Shown piece by piece: positions 7,374 to 20,110 of a stretch of 20,110 nucleotides of DNA (position 1 is its first letter; every line of letters begins with the position of its first letter). The position numbers and the translations under genes were made by a program. The notes beneath the pieces are model-generated. The model searched no databases and was not told where the DNA came from. It saw only the letters and a list, made by a program, of their open reading frames with translations. This DNA comes from Candidatus Buchananbacteria bacterium (GTDB lineage Bacteria > Patescibacteriota > Patescibacteriia > 2-01-FULL-39-33), in assembly GCA_041666945.1 (NCBI GenBank), contig JBAYFY010000002.1, positions 192,701 through 212,810 of the forward strand, given 5' to 3'.

Positions 7374-10013
7374 TTACTTTTTATCCTTAATCACTGCTTG
7401 GGCCGCGGCTAACCGAGCAATAGGCACACGGAAAGGCGAGCAAGAGACGTAGTTAAAACCTTCGCGGTGGCAGAAATTGACGGTCTTGGGTTCGCCGCCA
7501 TGTTCACCACAGATGCCGATCTTGAGGTCTTCTTTGGCGCTTCTGCCCTTTTTGATGGCGATGCGAATGAGCTCGCCAATACCTTCCTGATCCAAAACCT
7601 CAAACGGATCATATTCAAAAATTCCCTGCGCCACATATTCCTTCAAGAATTTTCCGGCGTCGTCGCGGGACAGGCCCGCGCCCATCTGCGTCAAGTCGTT
7701 AGTGCCGAAAGAGAAAAACTCGGCTCCGGCTTCCACGATTTTGTCGGCGATTAACGCCGCGCGCGGCACTTCAATCATTGTACCGATTTTGTATTTTAAC
7801 TGGCTGCCGCTGGCGGCCAATTTTTCCTCCACCACTTTAACGATGCGCTCCTTGAGAATGGAGAATTCTTTGACCGAGGCCACTAAAGGAATCATGATTT
7901 CCGGTTCAACTTTAATCCCCTCTTTTTCTACGGCGATCGCCGCTTCAATCACGGCTGTGGCCTGCATGTCATTGATTTCCGGATAAGTGATGGCCAAACG
8001 GCAGCCGCGATGACCTAACATCGGATTAAATTCGTGCAAATCATCAATCTTGGCTTTCAGAACCTCAATCGGCACATTCATCTCGGCGGAGAGATCGGCA
8101 ATATCTTTTTCTTCTTTGGGCAAGAATTCATGCAGCGGCGGATCCAAGAAACGAATAGTTACGGCCTGGCCGTCCATGGCTTTAAACAATCCGATGAAAT
8201 CCTCTTTTTGGTACGGTAAAATCTTGGCTAAGGCCTTTTCCCGGCCGGCCACATCAGAAGCCAGAATCATTTCTCTGACGGCTTTAATCCTGTCGCCCTC
8301 AAAAAACATATGCTCGGTGCGGCACAAACCGATGCCTTCGGCGCCGAATTTTCTGGCGACCGCGGCATCATGGGGAGTATCGGCATTGGTGCGGACTTTG
8401 AGTTTTCTGACTTCATCAGCCCAGCCCATTAAAGTGCCGAAGTTGCCGGAAAGTTCCGGATCCTTAGTGCCTAATTTGCCGTTATATACCTCTCCGGTAG
8501 CGCCGTCTAAAGAAATAAATTCTCCTTCTTTAAGAATCAATCCGCTATCTTTAACGGTTACGGTCTTGGCTTTTTCGTCAATAATAATGTCAGCGCAACC
8601 GGCCACGCAACAAGTGCCCATGCCGCGAGCCACCACAGCCGCGTGCGAGGTCATGCCGCCTCGGGCGGTCAAAATGCCTTTGGCCGAATGCATGCCATCA
8701 ATATCTTCAGGGGAGGTCTCCACGCGGACCAAAACAACATCCAAGCCGGCTTGGGCTTTGGCATACGCTTCAGCGGCGGTGAAAACGATTTCACCCACAG
8801 CGGCGCCGGGCGAGGCCGGCAAACCGCGAGCAATGACTTCACCTTCGGTCTTGGCTAAGGGATCTAATTGTTTATGTAATAATTGGTTTAATTGGTTCGG
8901 TTCCACGCGCATTAACGCTTCATCTTTGGAGATCGCGCCCTCGCTGACCAACTCCACAGCAATACGCACAGCGGCCGCGGCAGTCCGTTTGCCGTTTCTG
9001 GTTTGCAAGATGAATAATCGGCCTTGTTGAATGGTGAATTCCATGTCTTGCATGTCGCGGTAATGCTTTTCTACCGTGTTGCAAGTGTCCACTAATTCTT
9101 TATAGATAGTCGGATTTTGTTGTTCCAAAGTAGCCACGGTAAGCGGGGTGCGAATGCCGGCGACCACGTCTTCGCCTTGCGCGTTCATCAAATATTCGCC
9201 ATAGAACTTGGCTTCGCCGGTGGACGGGTTGCGGGTAAAGCAAACGCCGGTGCCTGAATCCTCGCCCAAATTGCCGAACACCATGGTTTGGATATTGACG
9301 GCCGTGCCGATTAATCCTTTGATATCATTAATCTGGCGATAACGGACGGCGCGATAGTTGTTCCAAGAATTGAAAACCGCGTTAATGGCGGCATATAATT
9401 GATCAATCGGATCCTGCGGGAAATCCACGCCTTTGACTTCTTTGATTTTGGTTTTGTATTGTGAGACGACTTCCTGCAAATCCTCGGCAGTCAAATCGGT
9501 GTCGTATTTGGCTCCTTTAGTGTCTTTAATATTTTCTAAAATATGTTCAAATCCGGCGTGCTCTACTTCCATCACCACATTGCCGAACATTTGGATTAAG
9601 CGGCGGTAGGAATCCCAAGCAAAGCGGGCATTGCCGGTCTTGGTGGCCAAGCCCAAAACCGATTGGTCGTTCAAGCCCAAGTTTAAAATTGTGTCCATCA
9701 TGCCCGGCAAAGAGGCCGCGGCGCCTGATCTGACCGAAACCAAAAGCGGATCGTTGGCATCGCCCAATGTCTTGGACATTTTTTCTTCCAACTCTTTGAG
9801 CTTAGCGTTAACCTGCTCTTTGACCTCGTCAGTAATCTGCTTGCCAGCTTTGTAATACAAATCGCAAACCTCGGTGGTAATAGTAAATCCCGGGGGCACG
9901 TTAATGCCCAGCCCTGACATTTCCGCCAAGTTGGCACCTTTGCCGCCGAGAAGTTCTTTCATGCTTTTATCCCCCTCTTCAAAGGAATAAACGTACTTTT
10001 TCACATCAGACAT
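7374..10013 (-). CDS. ppdK: Pyruvate, phosphate dikinase
   Basis: An 879-aa protein with the N-terminus MSDVKKYVYSFEEGDKSMKELLGGKGANLAEMSGLGINVPPGFTITTE. It has the phospho-His motif GGMTSHAAVVARGMG and the PEP-utilising C-terminal domain with GICGEHGG. Confidence 0.92.
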   Translation of the reverse strand: MSDVKKYVYSFEEGDKSMKELLGGKGANLAEMSGLGINVPPGFTITTEVCDLYYKAGKQITDEVKEQVNAKLKELEEKMSKTLGDANDPLLVSVRSGAAASLPGMMDTILNLGLNDQSVLGLATKTGNARFAWDSYRRLIQMFGNVVMEVEHAGFEHILENIKDTKGAKYDTDLTAEDLQEVVSQYKTKIKEVKGVDFPQDPIDQLYAAINAVFNSWNNYRAVRYRQINDIKGLIGTAVNIQTMVFGNLGEDSGTGVCFTRNPSTGEAKFYGEYLMNAQGEDVVAGIRTPLTVATLEQQNPTIYKELVDTCNTVEKHYRDMQDMEFTIQQGRLFILQTRNGKRTAAAAVRIAVELVSEGAISKDEALMRVEPNQLNQLLHKQLDPLAKTEGEVIARGLPASPGAAVGEIVFTAAEAYAKAQAGLDVVLVRVETSPEDIDGMHSAKGILTARGGMTSHAAVVARGMGTCCVAGCADIIIDEKAKTVTVKDSGLILKEGEFISLDGATGEVYNGKLGTKDPELSGNFGTLMGWADEVRKLKVRTNADTPHDAAVARKFGAEGIGLCRTEHMFFEGDRIKAVREMILASDVAGREKALAKILPYQKEDFIGLFKAMDGQAVTIRFLDPPLHEFLPKEEKDIADLSAEMNVPIEVLKAKIDDLHEFNPMLGHRGCRLAITYPEINDMQATAVIEAAIAVEKEGIKVEPEIMIPLVASVKEFSILKERIVKVVEEKLAASGSQLKYKIGTMIEVPRAALIADKIVEAGAEFFSFGTNDLTQMGAGLSRDDAGKFLKEYVAQGIFEYDPFEVLDQEGIGELIRIAIKKGRSAKEDLKIGICGEHGGEPKTVNFCHREGFNYVSCSPFRVPIARLAAAQAVIKDKK

Positions 10014-10147
10014 AGTTTATATGATTATTAGTTTTAATCAATTGACGTCATCCTCGGAATTTTTGCGGTGAGCAAAGCGAACTAAAAAATGTCCGGGGAT
10101 CCATTTAGTTTGTAGAAAAATATATTGAAACCTTATAGTTTTATAAA

Positions 10148-10171: not shown

Positions 10172-10573
10172 TCATTTTGCTTCTTCACCTTCCGGCTGAT
10201 AATCAAGCACGCCCGTGGCATGCTTTTTGTCGGCATAAAGAGTCATGCGATTATTAGCAATAAACAAATGACCAAAAAGATGGACGCATTCGTCATTAAC
10301 CATCAACCACTTAGCCACCTTGGGATATCTCTGAGCGGAAAAAGTCGCTTCCAATTCATAAACTTTGGTGAATTTTTCCTCACGCAATAATTCACACTTT
10401 TTGAATGTTAATTCCACCTCTTCTTGGCCATAATATAATGGCCCAATCCAAAAGTGGGCGGTGAACCTAATGGCTTGTGAGCCAACGTCTTTCAGGATAT
10501 TGATCAATAGAACATCAAGCACATTCATTGGCGGACAAAAACATAAACGCCTCGGTTCATCCTGTTCGGGCAT
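10172..10573 (-). CDS. Hypothetical protein, 133 aa (unrecognised), second gene of a coupled pair
   Basis: ATG 10573 (MPEQDEPRRLCFCPP...) is preceded by AAGGAGG at a 7-nt spacing, and that SD lies inside the end of the upstream ORF. The GC content is about 39%, against about 48% for neighbouring genes. No family recognised. Confidence 0.55.
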   Translation of the reverse strand: MPEQDEPRRLCFCPPMNVLDVLLINILKDVGSQAIRFTAHFWIGPLYYGQEEVELTFKKCELLREEKFTKVYELEATFSAQRYPKVAKWLMVNDECVHLFGHLFIANNRMTLYADKKHATGVLDYQPEGEEAK

Positions 10574-10787
10574 TGTCGACCTCCTTTGGTTCATATGTCC
10601 AATGAATCCCATCTCTAACTAGAGATAAAATCCTATAAGTTCCTTTGGGAAATTCATACTCTCCCCTTATAACCTCATTAAAATCATCTCTTAGAAAGAC
10701 AACCACATAGCCGCCATGCTTACCCTCTTTGGGTTGCATTTCTAACATTCGATCATAATATTTTGCTAATTTTTCAGACATTAGCAT
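10557..10787 (-). CDS. Hypothetical protein, 76 aa (unrecognised), first gene of a coupled pair
   Basis: An SD (AAAGGAG) lies 7 nt before ATG 10787. The product MLMSEKLAKYYDRMLEMQPKEGKHGGYVVVFLRDDFNEVIRGEYEFPKGTYRILSLVRDGIHWTYEPKEV looks beta-rich. It overlaps the next ORF by 17 nt and is low in GC. Confidence 0.55.
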   Translation of the reverse strand: MLMSEKLAKYYDRMLEMQPKEGKHGGYVVVFLRDDFNEVIRGEYEFPKGTYRILSLVRDGIHWTYEPKEVDNARTG

Positions 10788-10835
10788 GCTACATCTCCTT
10801 TGTTTAGTTTAAAGAGCTGAAAATAAAATGACAGG

Positions 10836-10890
10836 TACGCAGGATTTGCGCGCCCATCACTCCTGCCTACCAGTAGGCAGGCGACGAAAT
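10836..10890 (-). promoter_or_regulatory. GC-rich palindromic leader element upstream of the 76-aa ORF
   Basis: CCTGCCTAC ca GTAGGCAGG forms a 9-bp stem, with adjacent GCAGGA ...16 nt... TCCTGC offering an alternative pairing for the same GGCAGG. It forms a GC island in an AT-rich spacer and is related to the element at 19597-19646. Confidence 0.35.
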
Positions 10891-19522: not shown

Positions 19523-19551
19523 TTGACAAAATATTTAATGTATGCTACAAT
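19523..19551 (+). promoter_or_regulatory. Sigma70 promoter (TTGACA-17-TACAAT) for the 19694 gene
   Basis: TTGACA at 19523-19528, a 17-nt spacer, and TACAAT at 19546-19551. The predicted leader is about 135 nt. Confidence 0.55.
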
Positions 19552-19596: not shown

Positions 19597-19646
19597 ATTT
19601 CGTCATTCCCGCGCACCTTGCCTGCCGGCAGGCAGGGGCGGGAATC
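19597..19646 (+). promoter_or_regulatory. GC-rich palindromic leader element in the 5' UTR of the 19694 gene
   Basis: ATTCCCGC gcaccttg CCTGCC GGCAGG caggg GCGGGAAT forms nested stems. An internal tandem GGCAGGCAGG gives alternative pairings. The element is preceded by ATTTCGTC, as at the 10836-10890 element. Confidence 0.35.
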
Positions 19647-19693
19647 CAACAACCTCTCCGTCATCAAAAAGAAAGGAAACATCATGCAACCTA

Positions 19694-20110
19694 TCAGTTA
19701 TTCAAGGCAGTGGAAGCTTACCGTTCGTTGGTCATTAATCGCCGGCATAACCGCCGGATTATTCTGGATCACCTGGTATCTGATTTATGGCTCGGTGCCG
19801 GTAACGGACAAGATATTGTGGCTTGCCAACGAGCAAGACCGAACCAGGGATGTTTTTCTTCAACTGCCAGTGGCGCTGTCGCGATGGTGGGATATCCCAT
19901 CCGCCATGTTGTGGTCAACTGTCATTATTGGGGTGATTAGTTTCACCTTAAGAAAAAAACCCGGCGAACAGTTTGATATCGGTGAACAGTTTTATCTCTA
20001 TGTCATTTTGTTAATCGCCGGTTCGTGTCTCGGTCTGAGCTTAGGTCTGGGCTTAGGTCTGGGCTTAGGTCTAAACGCCGGTTCGTGTCTCGCTCTGGGC
20101 GCTGGTCTGG
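19694..20110 (+). CDS. Membrane protein with C-terminal (Gly-Leu)n repeat, 5' part only (it continues past the window end)
   Basis: An SD (AAAGGAAAC) precedes ATG 19694. The frame is open to the window end and translates MQPISYSRQWKLTVRWSLIAGITAGLFWITWYLIYG...LYVILLIAGSCLGLSLGLGLGLGLGLNAGSCLALGAGL. This frame was missing from the ORF track, which listed the overlapping frame 19710-19940 instead. Confidence 0.5.
20014..20110 (+). repeat. In-frame tandem repeats: a 12-bp unit (GGTCTGGGCTTA) x ~3.5 nested in a ~60-bp duplication (CGCCGGTTCGTGTCTCG appears twice)
   Basis: The sequence reads ggtctgagcttaggtctgggcttaggtctgggcttaggtcta. The flanking motif cgccggttcgtgtctcg occurs at 20016-20032 and again at 20076-20092. 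Confidence 0.6.

Follow-up and report, generated by a model that had tools for sequence, protein, structure and literature searches.

The stretch analysed here (the window; 20,110 nucleotides (nt)) is part of an 82.8-kb metagenome contig of a Candidatus Buchananbacteria bacterium, of which we read 37 kb (L003 and L002; window position = 29407 minus L003 position). Its gene content is housekeeping, with genes for a pfkB-family kinase, pyruvate phosphate dikinase (PPDK), TruB, CTP synthase and an SLT-domain protein. Two GC-rich palindromic elements lie between its genes: site 1 behind the gene for the 316-aa pfkB-family kinase, and site 2 ahead of a membrane-protein gene that starts at 19684. 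A preliminary description of the sequence had assigned to the two elements a common CCTGCC/GGCAGG core, a common prefix (ATTTCGTC) and, as a suggestion, a common function, namely that of a cis-regulatory RNA with mutually exclusive pairings in the leaders of the membrane-protein gene and of a 76-aa open reading frame (ORF). Comparison with related genomes leads us to a different view, which we hold with good confidence: both sites are recently inserted DNA-level hairpin repeats in this lineage and not a shared riboregulator. Site 2 is a CGTC-tagged repetitive extragenic palindromic (REP) sequence whose loop contains a 20-nt palindrome, and site 1 is a solo variant of the same palindrome (Table 1).

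Two sites and their orthologues

The common core is real and non-random. CCTGCC-N(0-8)-GGCAGG occurs exactly twice in the window (10862-10881 and 19621-19636) against an expectation of 0.02, and two matches were found in 0 of 100 shuffles. The octamer ATTTCGTC also occurs exactly twice (10883-10890, minus strand; 19597-19604, plus strand), but 30 of 100 shuffles held at least two matches, and its two occurrences alone are within chance. That frequency would allow a chance likeness of two unrelated GC-rich palindromes, an explanation that we consider refuted by the low expectation for the paired core and by the fact that both cores are at most one mismatch from two variants of one 20-mer recurring exactly in many contigs (the A variant for site 1 and the G variant for site 2). 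As DNA and as RNA alike, the two regions have clearly stronger folds than their shuffles (z about -3.3).

At site 1, the minus-strand spacer after the kinase gene reads TAA..ATTTCGTC G CCTGCCTACTGGTAGGCAGG AGTGATGGGCGCGCAAATCCTGCGTACCTGTCATTTTATTTTC. The element lies 13 nt past the pfkB stop codon and is therefore in a 3′ untranslated region (UTR) or intergenic spacer rather than in a dedicated leader. We compared it with L004, a collinear contig of a related species, about 80% identical, that was obtained by a genome scan with a UvrC-like protein (90% protein identity; DNA 74–93% identical in aligned blocks), and with two further relatives, L005 (UvrC-like protein 64% identity) and L029. In L004, ..ATTATTTCGTC is joined directly to AGGTGATAGGCGCGCCAAGCTGGCGTACCTGTCATTTTGTTTTC: the octamer, the downstream hairpin and the U-run are kept, and exactly 20 nt are absent. 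The palindrome is also absent in L005 and L029. The downstream hairpin (10828-10861; GTGATGGGCGCGCAAATCCTGCGTACCTGTCAT plus U-run) is separate from the palindrome, is kept in L004 and L029, and has G-U pairs that are workable only on the pfkB sense strand, which marks it as the pfkB terminator. The palindrome itself does not read as an intrinsic terminator, being followed by AGTGATGG, with the U-run belonging to the adjacent hairpin. Nor does site 1 classify as a CGTC-tagged REP: its stem is CCTGCCTA, its tail is AGT and its CGTC is an ancestral flank present in L004.

A sigma-70-like promoter at 19523-19551 places site 2 inside the 5′ UTR of the membrane-protein gene (ATTTCGTCATTCCCGCGCACCTTGCCTGCCGGCAGGCAGGGGCGGGAATCCAACAACCTCTCCGTCATC, plus strand); the earlier assignment of both elements to 5′ UTRs holds for site 2 and fails for site 1. 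The tag, arms and tail of this REP are identical to those of units on the same contig that match the Neisseria Transformation Sequence (NTS) exactly, and the sole difference in the alignment is 21 extra nt in the loop. The promoter, early UTR, ribosome-binding site (RBS) and start codon of the gene align with L004, where the REP-bearing stretch is replaced by unrelated sequence about 45 nt shorter. Absent at the orthologous L004 sites, where promoter, RBS and terminator are kept, both are lineage-specific insertions. The shared octamer is indeed present at both sites, but on these alignments it is not a common motif: it is ancestral at site 1, and its CGTC is the REP tag at site 2.

These comparisons bear directly on a shared cis-regulatory RNA that would control the 76-aa gene and the membrane-protein gene. 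Both elements are sense-transcribed and form stable RNA hairpins, and GGCAGGA of site 1 could in principle pair with TCCTGC in the terminator hairpin. That proposed partner, however, is inside a hairpin conserved in palindrome-free relatives, and the ‘duplicated GGCAGG’ said to permit alternative pairing at site 2 is GGCAGGCAGG, the right arm of the 20-nt palindrome CTTGCCTGCCGGCAGGCAGG. A shared leader RNA should be retained in orthologous leaders, yet both elements are missing at orthologous sites where the promoter, RBS and terminator persist, and folding of both leaders gave stable hairpins that leave the RBS free. In L004, L005 and L029, the terminator and then the PPDK gene directly follow pfkB, leaving no room for the 76-aa ORF or an overlapping 146-aa ORF, and tblastn found neither ORF in any of the relatives. 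The whole window gave 0 Rfam matches at gathering thresholds, and a test for covariation-type conservation across orthologous leaders saw none, the elements being absent from L004, L005 and L029 at site 1 and from L004 at site 2. The 20-mer, a perfect palindrome, recurs in hundreds of unrelated contexts. Copies of the same repeats flank a nuclease gene, lie inside the coding sequence of tgt and stand antisense upstream of the PPDK gene; these coding and antisense positions show that the repeats are not leader-specific, which the preliminary description had itself taken as a sign of a generic repeat. We give a shared riboregulator, attenuator or protein-binding hairpin next to no chance. The fallback idea of a small palindromic repeat family was right about repeats but took two nested families for one.

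Local co-option of the two insertions is a separate possibility, with site 1 acting as a 3′ stabilizer or terminator helper for the pfkB mRNA and site 2 as a 5′-UTR stabilizer or roadblock. The two hairpins are strong, several 20-mers elsewhere occupy the tip of a terminator-like hairpin or precede a T-run, and REPs downstream of genes have been proposed as mRNA stabilizers (PMC3733652). We nonetheless judge co-option unlikely: the relative does without both hairpins, a conserved terminator already follows site 1 and these copies are indistinguishable from neutral insertions. For the two neighbouring genes, the added 5′-UTR or 3′-UTR hairpin probably has no more than incidental effects.

The 76-aa and 146-aa ORFs are, as the relatives suggest, probably themselves an insertion of about 650 nt; Pfam, NCBIfam, PHROGs and PADLOC gave no match for either. 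The 76-aa ORF and the 133/146-aa ORF that overlaps it occupy window 10172-10787 on the minus strand (L003 18590-19238), with the pfkB terminator on one side and the PPDK gene on the other. The first ATG of this region comes only 35 nt after the terminator U-run.

Table 1 Features at the two sites and one further REP (window coordinates)
Feature	Position	Strand	Evidence or remark
CGTC-tagged REP with 35-nt loop, CGTC ATCCTCGG ..35 nt.. CCGGGGAT CCA	10046-10103	+	Hairpin scan; upstream of and antisense to the PPDK gene; unlisted in the preliminary description
Conserved hairpin and U-run, GTGATGGGCGCGC..GCGTACCTGTCAT TTTTATTTT, read as the pfkB intrinsic terminator	10820-10861	-	RNA fold; conserved in the source, L004 and L029
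Site 1, solo 20-nt palindrome, minus strand CCTGCCTACTGGTAGGCAGG, one mismatch from CCTGCCTACCGGTAGGCAGG	10862-10881	.	Between the pfkB stop codon and the pfkB terminator
ATTTCGTC, ancestral flank outside the inserted repeat	10883-10890	-	Kept in L004, which has no palindrome
Sigma-70-like promoter (TTGACA, 17 nt, TACAAT) of the membrane-protein gene starting at 19684	19523-19551	+	Promoter scan
Site 2, CGTC-tagged REP of NTS/dRS3 (SRM) type with enlarged loop	19601-19648	+	Hairpin scan; alignment with exact-NTS units
Site-2 tag CGTC	19601-19604	+	
Site-2 5′ arm ATTCCCGC	19605-19612	+	
Site-2 25-nt loop	19613-19637	+	
Nested 20-nt palindrome CTTGCCTGCCGGCAGGCAGG, one mismatch from variant CCTGCCTGCCGGCAGGCAGG	19617-19636	.	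In the site-2 loop
Site-2 3′ arm GCGGGAAT	19638-19645	+	
Site-2 tail CCA	19646-19648	+	
CCGTCATC, truncated head of a further repeat unit	19658-19665	+	Its spacer CCAACAACCTCTCCGTCAT precedes full units in the array too

CGTC-tagged repeats and an ssnA homologue

The NTS is CGTCATTCCCGCGMAVGCGGGAATCYRG, and its degenerate form is the Ssn-related motif (SRM) (Chenal et al. 2025, PMC11893778). SsnA, a 94-aa GIY-YIG protein, binds the NTS hairpin as single-stranded DNA (ssDNA) only and cuts a few nt upstream; its gene is typically flanked by the repeats, and the enzyme tolerates extensions at the loop position, the identity of the loop not being essential (PMC11893778). The same repeats fall within the CGTC-tagged REPs, of which family CGTC-1 equals dRS3 and Rickettsia RPE-6; their stems are 8–9 bp long and begin with AT, their tail is CCA, and some copies are intragenic (Di Nocera et al. 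2013, PMC3733652).

About 1.1 kb past the right end of the window (L003 7935-8225), the contig encodes a 96-aa GIY-YIG protein that is 53% identical (E 7e-38) to a protein of N. gonorrhoeae whose gene has nine NTS copies within 3.3 kb. Pfam assigns the product, which we call the SsnA homologue, GIY-YIG only, and a search of the PDB gave nothing beyond weak UPF0213 matches. Ahead of the gene stands an array of about ten ..TCGTCATTCCCGCG-loop-GGCGGGAATCCA.. units (L003 7540-7920), and after it come CGTCATCCCCGCGCAGGCGGGGATCC units in the opposite orientation (L003 8229-8388, with SRM copies). NTS pattern matches were found at L003 7658 (exact), 7856, 7893 and 3896, and SRM matches at 8229 and 8361. 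The entire NTS-ssnA-NTS cassette of 977 nt (L003 7526-8502; window-equivalent about 20905-21881) has 33 nt in its place in collinear L004. A scan for hairpins returned 12 distinct CGTC hairpins in the 37 kb, compared with 0.58 in shuffles. The published NTS (at most one mismatch) and SRM patterns, which the neighbouring units match, have no match anywhere in the window; site 2 escapes them because its loop has 25 nt and they allow at most 5.

The 96-aa protein is 64–74% identical to proteins of Deltaproteobacteria, Legionella, Nitrospirae, Omnitrophota and Chloroflexi metagenome-assembled genomes (MAGs). This suggests that it has spread horizontally. Within the array, 5′ half-units (CGTCATTCCCGCG plus 8–10 nt) stand in tandem before a full unit at L003 7553-7660 and 7832-7880, an architecture also seen in unrelated contigs of a viral collection (IMG/VR L044-L056).

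CGTC repeats occur in coding sequence as well. The gene tgt, for tRNA-guanine transglycosylase, contains five head-to-tail copies and two more, all in frame (..WIPAYAGMTEEKAGMTEEKAGMTEE..). The in-frame insertion comprises 225 nt of CGTC repeats (..IPAYAGMTEEKAGMTEE x5) at L003 3798-4022, outside the window. L004 carries a different CGTC-type pair, GTCATTGCGAG..CGAAGCAATC, at the same tgt codon position (L004 936-1058), which marks a shared hot spot. The usual CxCxxC zinc motif of the enzyme seems to be replaced by NTNLKNF. The long-loop unit antisense to the PPDK gene (Table 1) has a counterpart upstream of that gene in L005 (14941-15005) and none in the closer relative L004. In both units the loops of 35–41 nt begin with AATTTT, and the inner loop is partly self-complementary.

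From the published properties of SsnA, we can outline how site 2 might work. When single-stranded, its plus strand would form the NTS hairpin, which the SsnA homologue would bind and cut a few nt upstream. Given that loop identity was dispensable and loop-position extensions were tolerated in the published assays, the loop-expanded NTS is probably still a substrate. A role in this organism is a matter of speculation: as in Neisseria, the repeats may influence how incoming ssDNA recombines, or their spread may be purely selfish.

A dispersed 20-nt palindrome and a second GIY-YIG clade

The 21-nt insertion in the site-2 loop has as its core a 20-nt palindrome, and other units of the contig carry comparable loop insertions: CTTGCCTGCCGGCAGGCAGG at site 2, CCTGCCTACCGGCAGACAGG in two array units and CTTGCCTACTGGCAGTCAGG in tgt. 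Together with site 1, they are variants of one 20-mer with the perfect-palindrome consensus CCTGCCTRCCGGYAGGCAGG. A metagenome scan for CCTGCCTAC-N(0-4)-GTAGGCAGG found at least 120 loci; the gap is 2 nt in 103 of the 120 matches listed, and 97 match CCTGCCTACCGGTAGGCAGG exactly. All flanks differ in the 95 usable contexts of these matches, and the GC content of the loci spans 30–74%. The variant CCTGCCTGCCGGCAGGCAGG is present in 35 IMG/VR stretches, with at least six copies on one 29.5-kb contig. The distribution is patchy, with five copies in the 37 kb of the source, a further copy in 15 of the 120 seed loci and none (at most four mismatches) in 705 kb of unselected loci, of which 584 kb belong to relatives.

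The immediate surroundings of the 20-mer are often those of another hairpin. Complementarity of at least 7 nt between its two flanks was seen in 26% of cases compared with 3% of re-paired controls, which indicates that the palindrome frequently occupies a second hairpin's loop. Inspection by eye placed at least 12 copies inside CGTC-type repeats that have other stems (for example L059, L076, L140, L145, L169 and L172), and other hosts are terminator-like hairpins (L108, L088), other repeat families and the palindrome itself (L086, L102, L129). We read the site-2 hairpin as an NTS loop invaded by a second, smaller repeat, the 20-nt palindrome, with the same palindrome dropped as a solo copy at site 1 between stop codon and terminator; solo 20-mers would likewise spread into the loops of further hairpins.

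Alternatively, the 20-mer could be the original apex of a long CGTC repeat, and site 1 the remnant of a decayed CGTC unit. Four of the five source copies lie in CGTC loops at the same position (GCG[C/T]AC, 20-mer, GGCGGG), as expected of one amplified composite unit, and CGTC precedes site 1. The L004 site, however, is uninterrupted (ATTTCGTC joined to AGGTGATAGG) and retains no trace of repeat arms, and elsewhere the 20-mer is in terminator loops, in D-, anticodon- and T-loops of tRNAs, in other repeats and in itself, mostly with no CGTC repeat around it. We therefore regard a decayed composite as very improbable. Membership of CGTC or ATTTCGTC in the 20-mer family was likewise rejected, as 244 flanks of the 20-mer from other contigs show no enrichment of CGTC.

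We also considered how the palindrome could have multiplied. Direct repeats of at least 7 nt flank it in 3 of 39 cases in one set and 0 of 93 in another (lengths 7, 8 and 14 nt). Such target-site duplications, rare and variable in length, do not make up a clear signature of classical transposition. A sequencing or assembly artefact can be set aside by reasoning: the copies come from many projects and assemblers, point variants occur among them, close relatives differ in them although the DNA is otherwise collinear, and with k of at least 21 a de Bruijn graph cannot be joined through a 20-mer. When 1503 ORFs from the 120 loci were clustered all against all, no common neighbour of the 20-mer emerged, the sole cluster being orthologous genes for IHF-like proteins.

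One IMG/VR match provided a lead to a possible partner, its palindromes adjoining an 80-aa GIY-YIG gene. Homologues of this gene form a clade distinct from SsnA, with the motif NKTTKPY..REKYLKSGVGKEYLK where SsnA has GFTxxYNV..REKQLKxWNRxWK. In eight of nine distinct loci inspected, a variant of the 20-mer lies 13–300 nt from the second-clade gene, and five of the inspected loci had been fetched via the gene itself without consulting the palindrome. The ninth locus, which has a 45%-identical homologue, bears a diverged palindrome at the equivalent place. Loci L240 and L137 hint that the sequence of the palindrome varies together with the protein clade. An extra IMG/VR fetch for second-clade loci returned three, of which two were new (the 45%-identical homologue and a weak partial match).

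ARAGORN placed the second-clade gene next to an intact tRNA-Leu in six of seven loci scanned; in the seventh, L235, it stands beside remnants of a different tRNA. The order in the Patescibacteria locus is [tRNA-Leu 1-31][20-mer][anticodon loop and 3′ stem strand][ATG..gene], in tandem, with a palindrome-free intact tRNA-Leu(CAA) after the tandem units. Where other loci of the clade contain tRNA remnants, the 20-mer occupies the D-loop or the 5′ edge of the T-loop. In one locus there is an additional full-length copy of tRNA-Leu that bears two palindromes, and related contigs are without it. By its layout, such a locus looks like a homing-type element that restores its tRNA target, and we found no description of a tRNA-associated homing-type element with a GIY-YIG gene of about 80 aa.

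Across the genes of about 80 aa that we collected (L180-L203, L235, L240), the adjacent tRNA-Leu is of the CAA, CAG or GAG type in most, tandem tRNA remnants recur, and two or three copies of the gene sometimes stand in a row. In GC-rich phage-like contigs (IMG/VR L205 8616 and L228 2284), a tRNA-Met(CAT)-like sequence carries the 20-mer after its anticodon arm and before its T-arm.

The arrangement parallels that of NTS and ssnA and suggests, without proving it, that the 20-mer is to the second GIY-YIG clade what the NTS is to SsnA: by this analogy, it is probably the cognate ssDNA hairpin or end of that clade. Joining these strands, we tentatively propose, at somewhat less than even confidence, that CCTGCCTRCCGGYAGGCAGG is an undescribed mobile 20-nt palindrome that crosses phyla and is cognate to a second GIY-YIG clade of about 80 aa. 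The genes would leave a palindrome-bearing tRNA remnant (D-, anticodon- or T-loop) beside the intact tRNA, and solo copies would colonize the loops of other hairpins, including NTS, terminators, tRNA copies and the palindrome itself.

Several points weigh against our interpretation of the two sites and of the palindrome. For the NTS assignment, the 25-nt loop of site 2 fails the published NTS and SRM patterns. The full TTCGTC hexamer beside both elements is improbable as a coincidence, and the ancestral-flank account of site 1 explains it only partly. For the mobility of the palindrome, most dispersed 20-mers have no GIY-YIG gene within 4 kb, and the 37 kb of source contig read contain no second-clade gene; target-site duplications are rare (3/39) and of variable length; and the insertion point inside host loops is not constant.

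Relation to known systems

The NTS/CGTC-REP part of these findings is already known, and what is new is the host phylum and the loop-expanded variant. Site 2 shares with the NTS its tag (CGTC; HGTC), the two arms and the C that follows the palindrome, and an exact match to the NTS consensus with further NTS matches flanks a 96-aa single-domain GIY-YIG gene in clustered, oriented copies, as in the described system. Here, in contrast, the host is a MAG of the Patescibacteria, a phylum that the main text of PMC11893778 does not name, and the copy in the window has a loop of 25 nt instead of 3–5 nt with a second palindrome nested in it. With the CGTC-1 REPs, our repeats share the CGTC tag, the 8-bp stem beginning with AT, the CCA tail, clustering and in-frame intragenic copies (in tgt here). 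The CGTC-1 loops have 4–5 nt, no dedicated enzyme is reported for them, and REPs within other palindromes are mentioned, but no foreign palindrome in a CGTC loop (PMC3733652).

Neither the 20-nt palindrome nor its link to a tRNA-associated GIY-YIG clade appears to have been described in the literature searched; a full-text search for the 20-mer and its substrings returned no relevant paper. The GTAG-tagged REP/REPIN elements with RAYT transposases offer a parallel in layout, as short, GC-rich, dispersed, multi-copy hairpins that are variably present between close relatives, with the cognate enzyme gene flanked by its own repeats. The 20-mer differs from them in that its GTAG lies within the stem instead of forming an unpaired tag, in being a perfect palindrome with the same sequence in very different genomes, and in its link to GIY-YIG genes, not to a Y1 transposase. 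Two further groups of small GC-rich palindromes, the Rickettsia palindromic elements and the GC clusters of yeast mitochondria, likewise enter AT-rich spacers and, in frame, coding sequences, but they are lineage-restricted and longer (30–150 nt) than the 20-mer. They are not known to prefer the loops of other hairpins or to be linked to tRNA-associated GIY-YIG genes.

For annotation, these results mean that GC-rich hairpins in Patescibacteria spacers and leaders need a comparative check before they are called riboregulators. Here, the hairpins are selfish or nuclease-linked DNA repeats, which also lengthen coding sequences (tgt) and probably cause breaks in assemblies. Work on the NTS/SsnA system has so far concerned Neisseria; here the system occurs, with the same recognition sequence, in a bacterium of the candidate phyla radiation, a group thought to depend on DNA uptake. 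If our proposal for the palindrome is correct, the 20-mer and the tRNA-associated GIY-YIG clade would constitute a second, directly testable Ssn-like pair of enzyme and hairpin, the 20-mer would be among the smallest self-propagating DNA elements known, and the pair could serve as a new site-specific ssDNA tool and as a model for the spread of very small palindromes.

Short repeats of another kind are present in the membrane-protein gene downstream of site 2. At window 20030-20110 (plus strand), it contains a short tandem repeat, GGTCTGGGCTTA x3, which codes for GLGL.., with the direct repeat CGCCGGTTCGTGTCTCG at its flanks.

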